64,000 bases of DNA, from contig CM059432.1 of NCBI GenBank assembly GCA_030390025.1, positions 51,896,001 to 51,960,000 of the forward strand, given 5' to 3'. How positions within the stretch are numbered: position 1 is the stretch's first letter; every line of letters starts with the position of its first letter. The notes beneath the pieces were generated by a model that did no database searches, was not told where the DNA came from, and worked only from the letters and a program-made list of their open reading frames with translations. This DNA comes from Squalus acanthias (lineage: Eukaryota). This document shows positions 6,151-47,800 of the stretch, in pieces. The position numbers were made by a program, and so were the translations under genes.

Positions 6151-7316
6151 ATTTGATGGAATCTGGAACTGTACCCATGGATTGGAGGGTAGCTAATGTT
6201 ACCCCACTATTCAAAAAGGGTGGTAGAGAGAAAGCGGGGAATTACAGACCGGTAAGCCTGACGTCGGTAGTGGGGAAAATGCTAGAGTCCATTATAAAGG
6301 ATGTAATAGCTGAGCACTTGAAAAACAGTGACAGGATCGGACAAAGTCAACATGGATTTACAAAAGGTAAATCATGCTGGACTAATCTACTGGAATCTTT
6401 TGAGGATGTAACTGAGAAAATAGATAAGGGAGAACCAGTAGATGTGGTGTATTTGGACTCAAAAGGCTTTCGATAAGGTCCCGCATAAGAGATTAGCGTG
6501 TAAAGTTAAGGCACATGGGATTGGGGGCAAGGCATTGACTTGGATAGAGAACTGGTTGGCGGACAGAAAGCAGAGAGTAGGAATTAATGGGTCTTTTTTC
6601 TGAGTGGCAAGCAGTGACTAGTGGGGTACTGCAGGGATCGGTCCTTGGACCCCAGCTATTCACAATATATATTAATGATCTAGATAAGGGAACTAAATGT
6701 AATATCTCCAAGTTTGCAGATGACACAAAGCTGGGTGGGAGTGTGTGCTGCGAGGAGGATACCGAGAAACTCCAGGATGATTTGGACAGGTTGGGTAAGT
6801 GGGCAGAAGCATGGCAGATGCAATATAACGTGAATAAATGCGAGGTTATCCACTTTGGTGTCAAAAACAGAAAGGCAGACTATTATCTGAATGGCAATAG
6901 ATTGGGAGAAGAGGAAGTGCAACGAGACCTGGGTGTCCTTGTGCACCAGTCGCTGAAGGTAAGCATGCAGGTGCAGCAGGCGGTGAAGAAGGCAAATGGT
7001 ATGTTGGCCTTCAGAGCGAAAGGGTTTGCGTATAGGAACAGGGATGTCCTGCTGCAGTTGTACAGGGCCTTGGTGAGACCACACCTTGAGTACTGTGTGC
7101 AGTTTTGGTCGCCTTATCTGAGGAAGGAGGTTCTTGCCATGGAAGGAGTTCAGCGAAGATTCACAAGGCTGATACCTGGGATGGCAGGAATGACATATGA
7201 GGAGAGATTGGGTCGATTGGGCTTATACTCGCTGGAGTATAGAAGAATGAGAGGGGATCTCATCGAAACATATAAAATTCTGACAGGTTTGGACAAACTA
7301 GATGCAGGAAGAATGT
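6151..7316 (+). mobile_element. 5'-truncated CR1 LINE (host copy), ORF2 RT region with frameshifts
   Basis: NYRPVSLTS, QHGF, GVLQGSVLGP, FADDTKL and RPHLEYCVQFW motifs. Breaks after DAGRM and resumes at 11308. Confidence 0.95.
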
Positions 7317-8222
7317 GCCATGTGGGAAACCAGGGACACTTCCAGTGTCCCTGACAACTACGTGTGCGGGAAGTGTGTCCAGCTGCAGCTCCTGACAGCC
7401 CGCATGGCGGTGCTGGAGCTGCGGGTGGACTCACTCTGGAGCATGCACGATGCCGAGAACTCGGTGAATCGCTCATTTAGTGAGTTGTCCACACCGCAGG
7501 TAAAGGCTAGGACAGACAGTGTATGGGTGACCAAGAAGCAGGGCAATATCAGGAAGGTAGTGCAGGAGTCTCCTGTGGTCATCTCCCTCCAAAACAGGTA
7601 TGCCGCTTTGGATACTGTTGGGGGAGATGGCCTACCAGGGGAAGGCACCAGCAGCCAGGTTCAAGGCACCATGGCTGGCTCTGCTGCACAGCAGGGCGGG
7701 AAAAAGAGTGGTAGGGCTATAGTGATAGGGGACTCAATTGTAAGGGGAATAGACAGGAGTTTCTGTGGCCGTAACCGAGATTCCAGGATGGTATGTTGCC
7801 TCCCTGGTGCAAGGGTCAAGGATGTCTCGGAGTGGCTGCAGAACATTCTGAAGAGGGAGGGTGAACAGCCAGCTGTCGTGGTGCATGTAGGTACCAACGA
7901 TATAGGTAAAAAGCGGGAAGAGGTCCTACAAGCAGAATTTAGGGAGCTAGGAGCTAAATTAAAAAGTAGGACCTCTAAGGTAGTAATCTCTGGATTGCTA
8001 CCAGGGCCACGAGCTAATCAGAATAGAGAGAACAGGATAGTGAGATTGAATACGTGGCTTGAGCAGTGGTGCAGGAGGGAGGGATTCAAATTCCTGAGGC
8101 ATTGGAACCAGTTCTGGGGGAAGTGGGACCTGTACAAAAGGGACGGTCTGCACTTGGGCAGGACTGGAACCGATGTCCTCGGGGTAATATTTGCTAAAGC
8201 AGTTCGGGAGGATTTAAACTAA
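7302..8222 (+). CDS. CR1 ORF1 protein: partial Cys-rich N-terminus, coiled coil, SGNH/GDSL esterase domain (first 5 codons come from the host CR1)
   Basis: GDSIVRG, VHVGTND and DGLHL blocks. CGKC followed by heptad-like LQLLTARMAVLELRVDSL. Confidence 0.9.
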   Translation: MQEECAMWETRDTSSVPDNYVCGKCVQLQLLTARMAVLELRVDSLWSMHDAENSVNRSFSELSTPQVKARTDSVWVTKKQGNIRKVVQESPVVISLQNRYAALDTVGGDGLPGEGTSSQVQGTMAGSAAQQGGKKSGRAIVIGDSIVRGIDRSFCGRNRDSRMVCCLPGARVKDVSEWLQNILKREGEQPAVVVHVGTNDIGKKREEVLQAEFRELGAKLKSRTSKVVISGLLPGPRANQNRENRIVRLNTWLEQWCRREGFKFLRHWNQFWGKWDLYKRDGLHLGRTGTDVLGVIFAKAVREDLN

Positions 8223-11200
8223 TATGGCAGGGGAAGGGGAACCTATGTAGTGAAACAGGGGGAAGTAATATGCAGTCAGAAACAAATGTTAGAAGGGTGA
8301 GAAACAATAGGGGAAGGCCGAGTAAACAAAGGCAAGAAACACAAAGGGCCATACTAAATCATAAGTCTAAAAGGACAAAGGATGTTAATAAAACAAGCCT
8401 AAAGGCTCTGTGTCTTAATGCAAGGAGTATCCGTAATAAGGTGGATGAATTGACTGTGCAAATAGATGTTAACGGATACAATGTGATTGGGATTACAGAG
8501 ACGTGGCTCCAGAACAATCAAGGCTGGGAACTGAACATCCAGGGGTATTCAACATTCAGAAAGGATAGAATAAAAGGAAAAGGGGGTGGGGTAGCATTGC
8601 TGGTTAAAGAGGAGATTAATGCAATAGCTAGGAAGGACATCAGCTTGGAGGATGTGGAATCAATATGGGTTGAGCTGCAGAACACCAAAGGGCAGAAAAC
8701 GTTAGTGGGAGTTGTGTACAGACCTCCAAACAGCAGTGGTGAGGTGGGGGAGGGTATGAAACAGGAAATCAGAGGTGCGTGCAAAAAAGGCACGGCAGTT
8801 ATCATGGGTGACTTTAATATGCATATAGATTGGGCTACTCAAACTGGAAGCAATACGGTGGAGGAGGATTTCCTGGAGTGTTTAAGGGATGGTTTCCTAA
8901 ACCAATATGTTGAGGAACCAACTCGAGGGGAGGCCATCCTGGACTGGGTGTTGTGTAATGAGGAAGGACTAATCAGCAATCTTGTGGTACGAGGCCCCCT
9001 GGGGAAGAGTGACCATAGTATGGTGGAGTTCTACATTAGGATGGAGAAGGAAACAGTTAAGTCAGAGACCATGGTCCATTACTTAAATAAGGGCAACTTT
9101 GATGGTATGAGGCGTGAATTGGCGAGGTTAAATTGGCAAGCGATATTTAAGGGGCTATCAGTGGAAGGGCAATGGCAGACATTTAGAGATCGCATGGATG
9201 AACTACAACAATTGTACATCCCGGTCTGGCGTAAAAATAAAAAAGGGATGGTGGCTCAACCATGGCTAACAAGGGAAATCAGGGATAGTATTAAAACCAA
9301 GGAAGTTGCATACAAATTGGCCAGAAGTAGCAGCAAACCCGGGGACTGGGAGAACTTCAAAACTCAGCAAAGGAGGACGAAGGGTTTGATTAGGGCAGGG
9401 AAAATAAAATATGAAAGGAAGCTTGCAGAGAACATTAAAATGGACTGCAAAAGCTTCTATAAATATGTAAAAAGAAAGAGGTTAGTAAAAACAAACGTAG
9501 GTCCCCTGCAGTCGGAAACAGGGCAAGTCGTAATGGGGAACAAGGAAATGGCAGATCAATTGAACAAGTACTTTGGTTCGGTGTTTACTGTGGAGGACAC
9601 ACACAACCTGCCGGAAATAAAAGGGGTCAGAGGATCCGGTAAGAGGGAGGAGCTGAGGGAAATCCTTATTAGTCGGGAAAAGGTATTGGGGAAATTGATG
9701 GGACTGAAGGCTGAAAAATCCCCGGGGCCTGATGGTCTGCATCCCAGAGTACTTAAGGAGGTGGCCTTGGAAATAGTGGATGCATTGACGATCATTTTCC
9801 AACATTCCTTAGACTCTGGATCAGTTCCGATGGAGTGGAGGGTGGCCAATGTAACCCCTCTTTTTAAAAAAGGAGGGAGGGAGAAAGCAGGGAATTATAG
9901 ACCGGTCAGCCTGACATCGGTCGTGGGTAAAATGATGGAAGCAATTATTAAAGATGTCATAACAGACCATTTGGAAAGTGGCGACATGATAGGTCCAAGT
10001 CAGCATGGATTTGTGAAAGGGAAATCATGCTTGACAAATCTTCTGGAATTTTTTGAGGATGTTTCCAATAGGGTGGACAGGGGGGAACCAGTAGATGTGG
10101 TGTATTTGGACTTTCAGAAGGCCTTCGACAAGGTCCCACACAAGAGATTGGTGAGCAAAGTTAAAGCACATGGGATTGGGGGTAATGTGTTGACGTGGAT
10201 TGAGAACTGGTTGGCACACAGGAAACAAAGAGTAGGAGTAAATGGGTACTTTTCAGAATGGCAGGCAGTGACCAGCGGGGTACCGCAGGGTTCGGTGCTG
10301 GGACCCCAGCTGTTTACATTATATATTAATGATTTGGACGAAGGGATTAAATGTAATATCTCCAAATTTGCGGATGACACTAAATTGGGAGGCAGTGTGA
10401 ACAATGAGGAGGATGCTAGGAGGCTACAGAGTGACTTGGACAGGTTGGGTGAATGGGCAAATGTATGGCAGATGAAGTACAATGTGGATAAATGTGAGGT
10501 TATCCACTTTGGTGGTAAAAATAGAGAGGCGGACTATTACCTGAATGGTGGCAGATTAGGGAAAGGGGAGGTGCAACGAGACCTGGGCGTCATGGTACAT
10601 CAGTCACTGAAGGTGGGAATGCAAGTGCAGCAGGCAGTCAAGAAAGCAAACGGAATGATGGCCTTCATAGTAAGGGGATTTGAGTACAGGAGTAGGGAGG
10701 TGATGCTGCAGTTGTACAGGGCCTTGGTGAGGCCACACCTGGAGTATTGTGCGCAGTTTTGGTCTCCTAACTTAAGGAAGGACATTCTTGCTATTGAGGG
10801 AGTGCAGCGAAGGTTCACTAGATTGATTCCTGGGATGGCCGGACTGACATATCAAGAAAGATTGGGTCAACTGAACTTGTATCCTCTGGAGTTCAGAAGA
10901 ATGAGGGGGGATCTTATAGAGACATTTAAAATCCTGACTGGTTTAGACAAATTAGATGCGGGCAGAATGTTCCCAATGTTAGGGAAAACTAGAACCAGGG
11001 GTCACAGTCTAAGGATTAAGGGGAAGCCATTTAAGACTGAGCTGAGGAGGAACTTCTTCACCCAGAGAGTGGTGAATCTATGGAATTCTCTTCCACAGAA
11101 GGTTGTTGAGGCCAGTTCGCTAAATATATTCAAAAGGGAGTTAGATATAACACTCACAACTAGGGGGATCAAGGGGTATGGCGAGAAAGCAGGAATGGGG

Positions 11201-11307
11201 TACTGAGGTAGCATGTTCAGCCATGAACGCATTGAATGGCGGTGCAGGCTCGAAGGACCGAATGGTCTACTCCTGTACCTATTTTCTATGTTTCTATGTT
11301 TCTATGT
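7317..11307 (+). mobile_element. Young, near full-length CR1 LINE nested in an older CR1
   Basis: ORF1 (5'-truncated), intact ORF2, 3' UTR and (TTTCTATG)n tail. ATGT at both junctions (7313-7316, 11304-11307). Confidence 0.95.
8270..11206 (+). CDS. CR1 ORF2: APE endonuclease plus reverse transcriptase, uninterrupted 978 aa (frame is also open upstream through 8213)
   Basis: LNARS, GITETW, VYRPP, GDFN, LDWV, SDH (APE); GPDG, YRPVSLTS, DFQKAFDKV, GVPQGSVLGP, FADD (RT). Confidence 0.97.
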   Translation: MQSETNVRRVRNNRGRPSKQRQETQRAILNHKSKRTKDVNKTSLKALCLNARSIRNKVDELTVQIDVNGYNVIGITETWLQNNQGWELNIQGYSTFRKDRIKGKGGGVALLVKEEINAIARKDISLEDVESIWVELQNTKGQKTLVGVVYRPPNSSGEVGEGMKQEIRGACKKGTAVIMGDFNMHIDWATQTGSNTVEEDFLECLRDGFLNQYVEEPTRGEAILDWVLCNEEGLISNLVVRGPLGKSDHSMVEFYIRMEKETVKSETMVHYLNKGNFDGMRRELARLNWQAIFKGLSVEGQWQTFRDRMDELQQLYIPVWRKNKKGMVAQPWLTREIRDSIKTKEVAYKLARSSSKPGDWENFKTQQRRTKGLIRAGKIKYERKLAENIKMDCKSFYKYVKRKRLVKTNVGPLQSETGQVVMGNKEMADQLNKYFGSVFTVEDTHNLPEIKGVRGSGKREELREILISREKVLGKLMGLKAEKSPGPDGLHPRVLKEVALEIVDALTIIFQHSLDSGSVPMEWRVANVTPLFKKGGREKAGNYRPVSLTSVVGKMMEAIIKDVITDHLESGDMIGPSQHGFVKGKSCLTNLLEFFEDVSNRVDRGEPVDVVYLDFQKAFDKVPHKRLVSKVKAHGIGGNVLTWIENWLAHRKQRVGVNGYFSEWQAVTSGVPQGSVLGPQLFTLYINDLDEGIKCNISKFADDTKLGGSVNNEEDARRLQSDLDRLGEWANVWQMKYNVDKCEVIHFGGKNREADYYLNGGRLGKGEVQRDLGVMVHQSLKVGMQVQQAVKKANGMMAFIVRGFEYRSREVMLQLYRALVRPHLEYCAQFWSPNLRKDILAIEGVQRRFTRLIPGMAGLTYQERLGQLNLYPLEFRRMRGDLIETFKILTGLDKLDAGRMFPMLGKTRTRGHSLRIKGKPFKTELRRNFFTQRVVNLWNSLPQKVVEASSLNIFKRELDITLTTRGIKGYGEKAGMGY

Positions 11308-11644
11308 TCCTGATGGTCGGAGAGTCCAGAACCAGGGGTCATAATCTAAGGATAAGGGGTAAGCCATTTAGGACAGAAATGAGGAAGAATTTCTTCACCC
11401 AGAGAGTGGTGAACCTGTGGAATTCTCTACCACAGAAGGTAGTTGAGGCCAATTCATTAAATATATTCAAGAATGAGTTAGATATATTTCTTAAAGCTAA
11501 AGGTATCAAGGGATATGGGGAGAAGGCAGATACAGGGTACTGAGTTTGGATGATCAGCCATGATCTCATCGAATGGCGGAGCAGGCTTGAGGGGCCGAAT
11601 GGCCTACTCCTGCTCCTAACTTCTATGTTTCTATGCTTCTATGT
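11308..11644 (+). mobile_element. 3' end of the host CR1 (continuation of 6151-7316)
   Basis: Resumes FLMVGESRTRGH...FFTQRVVNLWNSLP, then 3' UTR and TTCTATG tail. Confidence 0.93.
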
Positions 11645-17870: not shown

Positions 17871-20800
17871 TGACACATAAGGGAGGGGGAGCATTATCTG
17901 GACAGTTTGCTCCAGACCTCACTCACACCTCGTAGAGAGGTGTAGGTTCAGAACGGGGTTGGTGTGACCGATAGTGTACAGAGTAGGGGGAACCCAGGTA
18001 AGATAGGGAATGAGAATCCACAGAAACTGATCCTATCCAACAGGTACAATGTACTTGTTACCTGTGAGGATAAGGATAAAGACTGTCGGAAGGACAGCCA
18101 GAATGCAGACCATGGCACCTTGGAGCAGGAGGCTGTCCTAAGGGGGGAGGAAGAGGAGGAGGAAGAGGAGGAGAGGAAGTGTAGTGTGCTAGTTGTAGGG
18201 GATTCTATAATTAGGGGGACAGATAGCATTCTTTGTAAGCAAGATCGAGAGTCCCACATGGTATGTTGGCTACCTGGTGCCAGGGTGAGGGATATCTCGA
18301 ATCAGCTTGAAAGGATATTGGAGAGGGAGGGAGAGGATCTAGTCGTTGTGGTCCATGTTGGGACAAACAACATAGGGAAAAGTAGGCAAGAGGTCCCATT
18401 TGGGGAGTACCAGGAACTAGGAGCTAAATTAAAGAACAGGACCTCAAGGGTTAAAATCTCTGGATTATTACCTAAGCCACATGCAAATTGGTGTAGGGAT
18501 AAGCAGATTAGGGAGGTGAACACGTGGCTGAAGGAGTGGTGTGGGAAAGAGGGGTTCCATTTCATGGGGCACTGGCACCAGTATTGGGACAGGAAGGAAC
18601 TGTACTGTTGGGACGGACTTCATCTGAACCGGTCTGGACCAGGGTCCTAGCAGAACAGATAAATAGGGTGGTCACAAGGACTTTAAACTAGTAAATGGGG
18701 GGAGGGGGAGGGGGAAATTGTAGTACAAATAGTAGTTCAAAAACAAATGAAAGGGAAGAGAGTAGAGTAACAGCCAGCAATTGTGCTTTAGGCACTACAG
18801 GTAAAGGGAAAACTAAAAGATGTAAAGTGATTAAACCAGGAGAGAGAAATAAGAAACATGTGAGTAAACATTAGAGCTGAAGAACAGGCTAGAGTGTGTG
18901 GCCCAAATAAGCGTTCTTTATAAAAACGCATGGTGTATAAGGAATGAATTGAATGAACTGCAGGCACAAATTCAACTTGAAGTGTATGACATGGCAGCCA
19001 TTACTGAGACATGGCTGCAAGACAGTCAGGACTGGGAACTAAATATACCAGAAGCTCTACAGGAAAGATAGGGAAAATGGTAGAGGGGGAGGAGTAGCCT
19101 TAGTGATTAAGGATGAAATCACTTCAATAATAAGAGAGGATATAACGAGAGGTAAGCAGGCAGTGGAGACTTTATAGGTAGAAATAAGAGATAGGAAAGG
19201 ATTTAAGATTGTAGTGGAAGTTGTGGATAGGCCCCCTGGTAGCAGCTGTGAAGTGCTAGATTGTATAAATGCAGAGATTAGACAAGCATTTAGCAAAGGC
19301 AAAGTGGTTTTAATGGGGGATTTTAACTTTCATATAGATTGGGATAAGCAGACTAGCACCTGTCAGAAAGGTAGTGAATTTCTTGAGCGTGTCCAGGACA
19401 ATATGTCCTAGAACCAACAAGGGGGCATGCCATATTAGATTTAGTAATGAGTAATGAGCCAGATTTAGTTAACAGCCTAACGGCGCGTGAACATTTATCT
19501 AATAGCGATCATAACATGATCGAGTTCAACGTAGTGTTTGAAAGGGAGAAACACGAAACAGCTACTAAGGTAAGGCCAACTTCAGTGGGATGAGACAGAG
19601 ACAGTCCACAGTAAACTGGGCAAATCTGTTAATGGGTAAAATGACAGAAGATCAGTGGGAGGTGTTCAAAAAATAATTTAATGTGATACAAAACCAGTTT
19701 ATACCCCCACGGGGCAAGAGCTCTACTTGCCAAAAAAAACAGCCATGGACGACTAAAGAGGTAGGAGGCAACATAAAACTAAAAGAAAAAGCATACAAAA
19801 ATGCAAAAAATAGCACAGATCCTGGCAAAATGGGAAAAATACAAAGAACAGCAAAGGGTCACAAAAGAGATAGTACGAGCTACAAAAATGGAGTATGAAA
19901 AGAAACTTGCAAGGAATATCAAAATCAACATGAACATTTTTTACAATTATATTTCGAAAAAGAGGGTGGTCAGAAGTAATGTTGGCCCCTTGAAAACTGT
20001 TATTGGTGATATTGTCAATGATAAGGAAATGACAGACATGTTGAATCATTTCTTTGCATCAGCATTTACAGTAGAGTAAGAGGATAGCATGAAGGAAATA
20101 CCAAGGAAACTAATATTAAATCAGGGACAGGGACTCAATAAAATTAACGTAAGCAAAATAACAATAATGAAGAAAATAATGGCACTAAAGAGTGACAAAT
20201 CCCCAGGACCAGATGGTTTCCATCCCAGGGTTTTAAAGGAAGTAGGTGAGCATATTGCAGATGCCCTAACTATAATCTTCCAAAGTTCTCTCGATTCAGG
20301 GACCATTCCTTTAGATTGGAAAATTGCGCATGTCACTCCACTATTTAAGAATGGCGAGAGAGGGAAACCAGGGAATTATAGACCAGTTAGCCTAACATCT
20401 GTTGTCAAGAAATTGCTAGAGTCTATAATTAAGGATAGGGTGACTGAACACCTTGAACATTTTCAGCTGATCAGAGAGAACCAGCATGGATTTGTGAAAG
20501 GTAGGTCATGCCTGACAAACCTGATTGAATTTTTTGAGAAGGTGATTAAATTAGTGAACAGAAGAATGTCTATGGATGTTATTTATATGGACTTCCAGAA
20601 GGTATTTGATAAAGTCCCTCATAAGAGACTGTTAACTAAGGTAGAAGCCCATGGAATTGAAGGCAGATTATTGACCTGGTTAGGAAATTGGCTAAGTGGC
20701 AGGAGACAGAGAGTAGGGATTATGGGCAGGTAATCTAATTGGCAGGATGTGACTTGTGGTGTCCCGCAGGGATCTGTGTTGGAACCTTAACTATTCACAG

Positions 20801-44869: not shown

Positions 44870-47800
44870 AAAGGGGATGATTTAAATTAGCTTGGCAGGG
44901 GGATGGGAACCTGAGTGTAGATTCAGAAGGGAGAGAAGCAAAGCTGGAAATGGAAGGTAGAAAATTAGTAAGTGAGTTTGGAAAGCAGAGGAAACAAAGG
45001 CTAGAAAATAGACAACAAGGGAGTTTGGCAATGCTTAATGGTATATACTTAAATGGAAGGAATAAGGCAGATGAGCTGAGGGCACAGATAGACACGTGGA
45101 ATCATGTGGAATCATAGTTATTTCTGAAACATGGCTTAAAGTAGGGCAAGAATGGCAACTCAACATTCCTGTTTTCAGACGAGATAGAGAGGGGGATAAA
45201 AAAGGAGGGGGGGTCCCAATATTGGTTAAAGAAACAATTACAGTTGTGAGGAGGGATGCTATGTTAGAAGGATCATCATATGGGTTGAACGGAAGAACAA
45301 AAAAGGGACAACCACACTGCTGGGACTGTACTATAAACCCCCAAATAATCAGAGGGAGACAGAAGAGCAAATATGTAGGCAAATTTCTGAGAAGTGCAAA
45401 AACAATAGGGCAGTAATAGTAGGGGATTTCAACTACCCTAATATTAACTGTGATAGAATCATGTGTAAAGGTATAGAGTGCGCAGAATTCTTAAAATGCA
45501 TTCAGGAGAACCTTTTTAGCCAGTACGTAGCAAGCCCAACAAGAGAGGAGACAGTTCTAGACTTAGTTTTCGGGAATGAAGCTGGCCAAATGGAAGGAGT
45601 ATCAGTAGGAGAGCATTTTGGTGGTAGTGATCATAATTCAGTTAGATTTAGCGTAGTTATGGAAAAGGATAAAGATAGACCAGGAGTAAAAGTTCTCAAC
45701 TGGGGAAAGGCCAATTTCACTAAGCTGAGAGGTGACTAAGCAAAAGTGGACTGGAAACAGATACTTGAAGATAAATCAGTGTTAGAGCAGTGGGAGGTAT
45801 CCAAGTAGGAGACAGTGAGGGTTCAGAGCAAATATGTACCCACAAAGAAAAATGGTGGGACTCCCAAATCTAGAGCTCCCTGGATGTCGAGGTGTATACA
45901 GGGTAGGAAAAGGAAAAAAAGCTTTTGTCAGATACCGTGAGCTAAATACTACAGAAAGCCGAGAGGAGTATAGAAAGTGCAGGGGTGAAATTAAAAAGGA
46001 AATTAGGAAAGCAAAGAGAGGGCATGAAAAAATATTGGCAACTAAAATCAAGCAAACCCCAAAGATGTTCTAAAAATATATAAAGAGCAAGAGGATAACT
46101 AAGGAAAGAGTAGGGCTTATTAGAAACCAAAAAGGTAACCTGTGTGTGGAGGCGGAAGACGTGGGGATGGTTCTTAATGAATGCTTTGTGTCTATCTTCA
46201 CAAAAGAGAGGGACGATGCAGACATTGTAGTTAAGGAGGAGGAGTGTGAAAAAGTAGATGAGATAAACATAGTGAGAGAGGAAATATTAAGGGGTTTATC
46301 ATCTTTGAAAGTAGATAAATCGGCAGGCCCGGATGAAATGTATCCCAGGCTGGAAGAGAAGCAAGAGAGGAAATAAGGGAAGCTCTGACCATCATTTTCC
46401 AATCCTCTCTGGCTACAGGCATGGTGCCGGAGGGCTGGAGAACTGCTAAAGTTGTGCTAAAAAGGGAGAAAAGGATAGCCCGAGTAATTACAGGCCAGTC
46501 AGCCTAACCTCAATGGTGGGCAAATTATTGGAAAAAATTCTGAGGGTTAGTATTGTCATTTAGAAAGGCACAGATTAATCAAGGACAGTCAGCATGGGTT
46601 TGTTAAGGGAAGCTTGTATCTGACTAACCTGATTGAATTTTTTGAGGAGGTAACAAGAAGGGTCGATGGGGGTAGCACATTTACATGGATTTTAGCAAGG
46701 CTTTTGGCAAGGTCCCATATGGTAGACTGGTCAGAAAAGTAAAAGCCCATGGGATCCAAGGGAAAGTTCTTATGTTCTTAAAGTGGCAAGTTGGATCCAA
46801 AATTAGCTCAGTGGCAGGAAGCAAAGGGTAATGCTCGACGGGTGTTTTTGTGACTGGAAGGCTGTTTCCAGTGGGGTTCCGCAAGGTTCAGCACGAGGTT
46901 CCTTGCTTTTTGTGGTATATATCAATGATTTAGACTTCAATGTAGGGGGCATGATTAAGAAGTTTGCAGATGATGCAAAAATTGCCATGTGGTTGATAGT
47001 GAGGTAAAAAGCTGTAGACTGCAGGAAGGTATCAATGGACTGGTCAGGTGGGCAGAAAAGTGGCAAATAGAATTCAATCTGGAAAAGTCTGAGGTAATGC
47101 ATTTGGGGAGGGCTAACAAGGCAAGGGAATACACAATAAATGGCCAGATACTGAGAAGTGTTGAGAACAGGGGGATCTTAGAGTGAATGTCCACAGATCC
47201 CTGAAGATAGTAGGACAGGTAGATAAGGTGGTTAAGAAAGCATACAGGATACTTTCCTTTATTAGCTGAGGCATAGAATATAAGAGCAGGGAGGTTATGC
47301 TGGAACTGTATAAAACACTAGTTAGGCCACAGCTAGAGTACTGCGTACAGTTCTATTCACCACATTACAGGAAAGAGAGAGGGTACAGAGGAGATTTACG
47401 AGGATGTTGGCAGGACTGGAGAATTTTAGCCAGGAGGAAAGATTGGATAGGCTTGGGTTGTTTTCTTTGGAACAGCGGAGGCTGAGGGGAGATTTAATTG
47501 AAGTGTATAAAATTATAAGGGGCCTAGATAGAGTGGATAGGAAGGACTTATTTCCCTTAGCAGAGAGGTCAATAACCAGGGGGCATAGATTTAAAATAAT
47601 TGGTAGAAGGATTAGAGGGGAGTTGAGGAGAACTTTTTTTACCCAGAGGGTGGTGGGGATCTGGAGCTCACTGCTTGAAAGGGTGGTAGAGGCAGAAACC
47701 CTCATCAAATTTAAAAAGTGCTTGGATGTGCACTTGAACTGCCCTAACCTACAAGGCTATGGACCAAGAGCAGGAAAGTGGGATTCGGCTGGATAGCTCT

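Follow-up and report, generated by a model that had tools for sequence, protein, structure and literature searches.

How the second ORF of a bicistronic LINE message is translated is a long-standing question, to which the answers so far have mostly been reinitiation models proposed for L1 and SART1, and the same problem is posed by CR1. The layouts differ: the two ORFs of L1 are separated by a spacer and those of SART1 meet at an overlapping stop and start, whereas in CR1 the overlap of the two ORFs lies at a slippery heptamer and its phase is always −1. In this respect CR1 resembles retroviral gag-pol and coronavirus ORF1a/1b, with which it shares the class of heptamer, its phase and the overlapping −1 ORF (PMC5009743, PMC7939443), and in which a structural or chaperone gene is fused to a polymerase gene, as is proposed here for CR1. 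Unlike retroviruses and coronaviruses, CR1 is a non-LTR LINE, its 0-frame stop adjoins the heptamer, and no stem-loop was detected 5–10 nt downstream. The frameshift idea is not new for LINEs, because a −1 frameshift is stated, in the figure legend of a review, to be required for ORF2 translation in TRE5-A and TRE3-A of Dictyostelium (PMC5911963). HeT-A is cited among the non-LTR frameshift cases (PMC5009743). The TRE elements are also APE-type LINEs, but they belong to a different clade and a different host; the CR1 shift site is conserved across jawed vertebrates. A further parallel is the −2/−1 slippery site in nsp2 of the arterivirus PRRSV, where shifting is stimulated by proteins and which has no predicted structure and instead a conserved single-stranded, homopolymer-rich motif 11 nt downstream (PMC7939443). 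CR1 would be like PRRSV in layout only, a G run beginning at the 11th base after its heptamer; the C-rich PRRSV motif is a binding site of PCBP and nsp1-beta (PMC7939443), whereas its CR1 counterpart is G-rich and any binding to it hypothetical.

No report of frameshifting in CR1 was found among the papers listed by the literature searches, a body of work to which the original 1997 CR1 papers do not belong. Those papers reportedly place the ORFs close together or overlapping, and may have raised frameshifting. The name CR1 was not found by term look-up in the 300,000 characters covered, of 449,034, of a 2016 review of frameshifting (PMC5009743), a term look-up did not find "frameshift" in the covered text of a 2026 survey of CR1-group elements in vertebrates (PMC13343379) or of a survey of ORF1 proteins (PMC4120745), and frameshifting of CR1 is not proposed in the covered parts of three further papers (PMC11835228, PMC4255032, PMC3708506).

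The CR1 copy studied here occupies positions 7318–11306 of the forward strand of the window, by which we mean the whole 64-kb stretch of DNA analysed, taken from a genome of 3.7 Gb. Its ORF1 (7318–8222) is of the SGNH/GDSL esterase type, matching Lipase_GDSL_2 (PF13472; E 3e-13, over the Pfam cut-off) and the ORF1 esterase of PDB 4C1B (E 4e-32), and ends in Leu-Asn-stop. The copy is truncated at about 7318, so that the start of ORF1 is missing, and is inserted within an older CR1 that resumes near 11304 (ORF2 residues 924–1002 at 11304–11540 by tblastn); both the truncation and the nesting had been overlooked in the earlier note on this DNA. A full N-terminus is present in 11 of 29 family copies, and in ten of these 11 the match to the window begins only at about 7319. 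Downstream lie the intact ORF2 body with its APE endonuclease and reverse transcriptase (8411–11206; Pfam Exo_endo_phos and RVT_1, and translation) and a 3' UTR (11207–11306) that ends in the short tandem repeats typical of CR1. Together with the dispersed 5'-truncated copies, these are the features of the class, and the element is a CR1-clade LINE with an esterase, or type IV, ORF1, a name taken from the domain layout, the tail and the label already given to it in the earlier note; type IV ORF1 proteins of this clade are described in PMC4120745. The family is young, 40 of 40 scored matches being 99–100% identical across the junction, and in 29 of 29 family copies examined the junction is identical to that of the window copy.

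As the earlier note had it, ORF1 ends in GAT (from 8211) TTA AAC TAA, so that the heptamer T-TTA-AAC (8213–8219), the predicted −1 shift site, lies in 0-frame phase with the ORF1 stop (8220–8222; TAA here, TAA or TAG elsewhere) directly 3' of it. The −1 frame is closed by a stop at 8195–8197, six codons 5' of the heptamer, opens at 8198 and runs to 11206, giving 1002 open codons from stop to stop, 997 of them counted from the heptamer. A −1 frame stop was found two to six codons upstream of the heptamer in nine of the ten elements examined, which leaves little other room for a shift. Two further CR1 copies lie in the window: a decayed member of a distant family (18682–18710, forward strand), with an ORF1 44% identical to that of the first copy, has the same heptamer, TAG and a G run, its cluster keeping heptamer and TAG in 18 of 18 hits, and a third copy near 44885 reads T-TTA-AAT followed by TAG. 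The 9-mer at the junction is not rare by itself, as two occurrences were found in the window against 0.92 expected and 24 of 100 shuffles also reached two; the evidence is positional, both matches standing at CR1 ORF1 ends, and it was for this reason that position and conservation were tested instead.

Junctions were gathered through a search with a Pfam model that does not reach as far as the end of ORF1 and 30 of whose 150 matches were taken as loci, through protein and DNA searches, from 80 evenly spaced 10-kb stretches, and from metagenome contigs, with ORF1 ends placed by a profile that omits the last four codons. The metagenome contigs were found with an alignment of squamate and turtle type, similarity to which is the sole basis for calling them amniote-type, and their 13 junctions constitute the DNA evidence from outside this genome. 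Heptamer and TAA or TAG stood in register in 133 of 153 sequence-unique junctions of the genome itself and in 9 of 13 metagenome junctions; among the evenly spaced stretches the figure was 8/10, and 10/10 when displacement by up to 5 nt was allowed. A few families dominate these counts, so one copy per cluster was used for the codon test. From 26 clusters this gave 21 representatives, each a real copy (11 from this genome, 10 amniote-type from metagenomes), selected for a stop at the expected codon; the five clusters dropped comprise three with a 1-nt indel upstream and an intact heptamer, one with TGG in place of the stop and one that is decayed. Pairwise identity among the representatives over 66 upstream bases is 29–98% (mean 53%), and the rows share ancestry and are not independent, L134 and L235 being of one family and one copy having a deletion after the stop.

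Among these representatives the base before the Leu codon is T in 21/21, across seven different amino acids, against a background of 23% T at third positions. The Leu codon is TTA in all 21 (14% in the rest of ORF1) and the Asn codon AAC in 19/19 (background 40 AAC to 44 AAT), the other two copies carrying point changes. Free synonymous variation at these two codons, which according to the earlier note would speak against a frameshift, is thus absent. For the conserved upstream residues Asp, Gly, Leu, Gly, Leu and Ala, these rows each show two to five codons per residue, a conserved His (CAC in 14/15) being the exception among these controls. Because the controls vary while the Leu-Asn bases are fixed, the constraint acts on the bases and spans exactly the heptamer. 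Judged by this comparison of sequences, conservation of the nucleotides at the heptamer goes beyond what the protein needs, and the junction is a real and deeply conserved feature.

The same frame relation extends into the linker that joins the heptamer to the endonuclease (8213–8410 in the window copy, 66 codons in the −1 frame). With the first endonuclease motif as a second anchor, the distance from the heptamer was a multiple of three in 130 of the 150 hits at junctions (a count that retains duplicates), while linker length ranges across lineages from 37 to 88 codons. Over 843 linker codons, taken from the 16 of 21 groups with an in-frame modal length (the five out-of-frame groups being left out), the −1 frame has 9 stops, of which a single decayed copy accounts for six; the remaining two frames have 76 and 74. 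No AUG is conserved. The earlier note correctly gave the −1 frame as open for 19 codons from 8213 to an ATG at 8270, which is in frame in 31 of 31 hits of the window family; overall the first linker Met falls anywhere from codon 4 to codon 58 or is absent, as in the L144 family (0/47 hits) and the L186 family (0/9). In three members of the latter (L279, L280 and L219) the frame is open over 983 codons counted from the heptamer, with the first in-frame Met at codon 256 and endonuclease motifs at codons 55, 82, 185 and 252. Since all of these precede that Met, initiation at an AUG there would yield an enzyme without its endonuclease. L279–L281 are 99.8–99.9% identical and have unrelated flanks, so this AUG-less family moved recently, although it could move in trans. 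Between families the endonuclease dN/dS is approximately 0.08; within the AUG-less family one nonsynonymous and three synonymous endonuclease changes are too few for the ratio, as are the changes in the 19 codons before the ATG of the window family. The 2A, or StopGo, motif D-x-E-x-N-P-G-P described in LINEs (PMC3708506) was not seen by eye at the ORF2 N-terminus in the linker translations.

The main alternative is termination followed by reinitiation, in which ribosomes would restart near the ORF1 stop, either at an AUG or at some other codon, as happens in L1, with the conserved bases serving as the restart signal and ORF2p made as a separate protein. Reinitiation is known for SART1 (PMC3708506) and is AUG-independent in L1, whose ORF2 tolerates loss of its AUG (PMC1965478); it is also in keeping with the ATG of the window family, with an ATG at linker codon 5 in several amniote-type copies, with near-cognate codons in the AUG-less linker and with the lack of a detected stem-loop stimulator. 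Against it, CR1 has no overlapping in-frame stop and start, the ATG that shark families carry 4 nt past the ORF1 stop being out of frame, and the first Met shifts its position or is lost. Moreover, reinitiation leaves unexplained both why an exact X_XXY_YYZ should be kept at synonymous sites and why the −1 frame should be free of stops all the way between the heptamer and a remote AUG, and we consider it unlikely as the account of the junction. The two routes, frameshifting and reinitiation, could nevertheless coexist in the families that have an ATG. A conserved ORF2 ATG preceded by frequent in-frame stops, the other pattern that the earlier note had set against its proposal of an ORF1–ORF2 fusion, does not occur, whole families being without the ATG and linker stops being concentrated in the two other frames, and as far as sequence can tell its reading as a fusion finds support.

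The expectation in that note of a stimulator 5–9 nt downstream was not borne out with respect to a classical stem-loop: in 12 folds the region 3' of the heptamer folded no better than shuffled sequence (z −1.5 to +1.7, pseudoknots being outside the model), and when the 24 nt that follow the stop were scanned for duplexes with the remaining sequence of 15 junctions, no long-range partner recurred. The stem-loop of the canonical −1 frameshift class was thus not detected in CR1 by these folds. The G-rich tract placed about 6 nt downstream does begin with GG at 8226, 6 nt after the heptamer, but its conserved part is 8230–8233, 10 nt after it, within a candidate stimulator (8230–8239) made up of this G run and a weaker second one. 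A GGG at this 10-nt offset is shared by 16 of 17 representatives, whereas its downstream frequency is 2.9% per position, and the first G of the run, a synonymous third position, is G in 17/17; the other four of the 21 representatives were left out of this count for their short downstream DNA. In L037, one of the 17, the G run matches by coincidence, this copy having a deletion 3' of the stop. Two-tier quadruplex patterns occur in 10/17 and three-tier patterns in 0/17, a quadruplex being the best predicted fold in 4/17, among which the window copy is not found. Rather than a stem-loop, the stimulator is probably the neighboring stop combined with a G run in single-stranded form, which is the least certain part of the proposal, and the G run may act as a protein-binding site or as a weak G-quadruplex.

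The bases around the stop have also to be considered as an RNA-processing signal, for example a branch point and splice acceptor, from which a separate or spliced ORF2 message would arise. The stop is TAG in 14 of the 21 representatives, and AG often precedes the G run; but the other seven have TAA (TGA in none), which removes the AG, an A precedes the G run in only 13/20, and the region is purine-rich and has no pyrimidine tract. Splicing would, besides, neither supply the missing AUG nor need a −1 frame open from the heptamer onwards, and we regard this explanation as very improbable. Contigs of four sequencing runs that cover the junction show no joint or indel there, an observation that can neither demonstrate expression nor exclude splicing.

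At the protein level, Leu-Asn is the C-terminus of 99 of 120 ORF1 homologs, almost always at a distance of 26 residues from the final esterase motif. The named hosts of these proteins are sharks, rays, coelacanth, teleosts, frogs, turtles, lizards and a snake, with the closest named homologs in a sawshark (71–74%), which points to a cartilaginous fish as the source of the window. The residue that precedes Leu-Asn is any of 13 different amino acids among the 99, and is Glu, whose codon cannot supply the U at heptamer position 1, in three of them. A depletion of Glu, Lys, Gln, Met and Trp at this position (3/99) was dropped as evidence, positions −6 and −7 showing the same. A search for longer ORF1 homologs gave nine hits, mostly single-member chimeras or predictions, and two ray proteins whose sequence continues across the junction in the −1 frame (P0123 and P0034) were excluded as evidence for being single-member gene predictions. 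No relative was found in the viral contigs searched, and the prokaryote genome contigs searched gave a single match, to an unrelated bacterial esterase. That Leu-Asn is merely needed at the esterase C-terminus, its codons and the frame being inherited by shared descent, is hardly credible: its invariance in a 63-sequence ORF1 alignment, the relatedness of the lineages and the apparent swapping of ORF1 modules between families would suit such an account, but in the very rows in which the third positions of Leu-Asn are constant, those of other invariant residues vary, the fixed T sits in the codon of a free amino acid, and L2-type esterase ORF1 relatives (P0128, P0131) lack the Leu-Asn terminus.

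We therefore return to programmed frameshifting, for which the junction offers canonical features: an X_XXY_YYZ heptamer in 0-frame phase, an overlapping −1 ORF that is open downstream and is required for function, and the nucleotide conservation described above. U_UUA_AAC is among the heptamers most prone to shift on mammalian ribosomes (PMC5009743). From the sequences we infer that, probably, a fraction of ribosomes slip by −1 at the end of ORF1 to produce an ORF1–ORF2 fusion. Ribosomes would reach Leu-Asn with the stop next to it, and most would terminate there and release ORF1p. A minority, presumably through tandem slippage of tRNA-Leu and tRNA-Asn, would move one base back and continue into the linker, the endonuclease and the reverse transcriptase, with the G run perhaps favoring the shift. 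The product would carry, in order, the esterase, a flexible linker, the endonuclease and the reverse transcriptase, and the rate of slippage would set a ratio of ORF1p to fusion similar to that of Gag to Gag-Pol.

We also put forward, much more tentatively and as a possibility that may well prove wrong, that a single −1 frameshift cassette has served vertebrate CR1 ever since jawed vertebrates arose and that it would work without a folded stimulator, by means of the heptamer, the stop that adjoins it and, at a constant 10 nt, a single-stranded G run, this run being bound by a host G-run-binding protein or by ORF1p so that ORF2 output would be regulated in trans, as in arteriviruses. Because a cassette of 30 nt is defined, the question of how CR1 ORF2 is translated becomes directly testable. 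If frameshifting is confirmed, CR1 ORF2 proteins annotated from their first Met would be wrong or truncated, the native junction would be needed in CR1 constructs, and vertebrates would possess a conserved nuclear −1 frameshift that operates without a classical stimulator. Should the cassette reading also hold, the enzyme to which sharks, reptiles and birds owe most of their interspersed repeats would be a fusion of esterase, endonuclease and reverse transcriptase.

The heptamer T-TTA-AAC that precedes the ORF1 stop of the young CR1 element (window 8213-8219) has relatives that depart from it. In three ORF1 protein homologs (P0006, P0090 and P0111) the terminal Leu-Asn is preceded by Glu, which implies, as read from the protein sequences, that their heptamer would begin with a purine; a passage of PMC5009743 mentions that equine arteritis virus has a G_UU(A) variant. 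A decayed CR1 at window 44875-47775, truncated just upstream of the junction, carries the variant T-TTA-AAT followed by TAG, and the same G run is kept. The ORF1 stop itself is TAA or TAG in the 21 representative copies, which were picked for having a stop there, and TGA was found in none of them, despite the codon in the -1 frame being Leu in either case.

Two junction copies break right past the ORF1 stop: L037, which lies at the same place as L136, jumps into the endonuclease, and L147 continues as unrelated DNA. Another homolog, P0010, is a shark-type CR1 ORF1 protein whose NCBI entry, on a 4.2-kb contig, stands under Pseudomonas aeruginosa, which is probably contamination.

The young element (window 7318-11306, forward strand) interrupts, at ORF2 residue 924, an older CR1 ORF2 with approximately 80% amino-acid identity (window 6156-7317 and 11304-11540), whose frame picks up again past the younger 3' tail; at both joins the two share a few bases.

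Between window 7710-9020 and L279, from the sister family lacking the linker Met, the synonymous distance is 0.47 at the ORF1 end vs 1.9 in the endonuclease, and this difference suggests that ORF1-plus-linker modules were exchanged among CR1 families, with a break near the endonuclease start.
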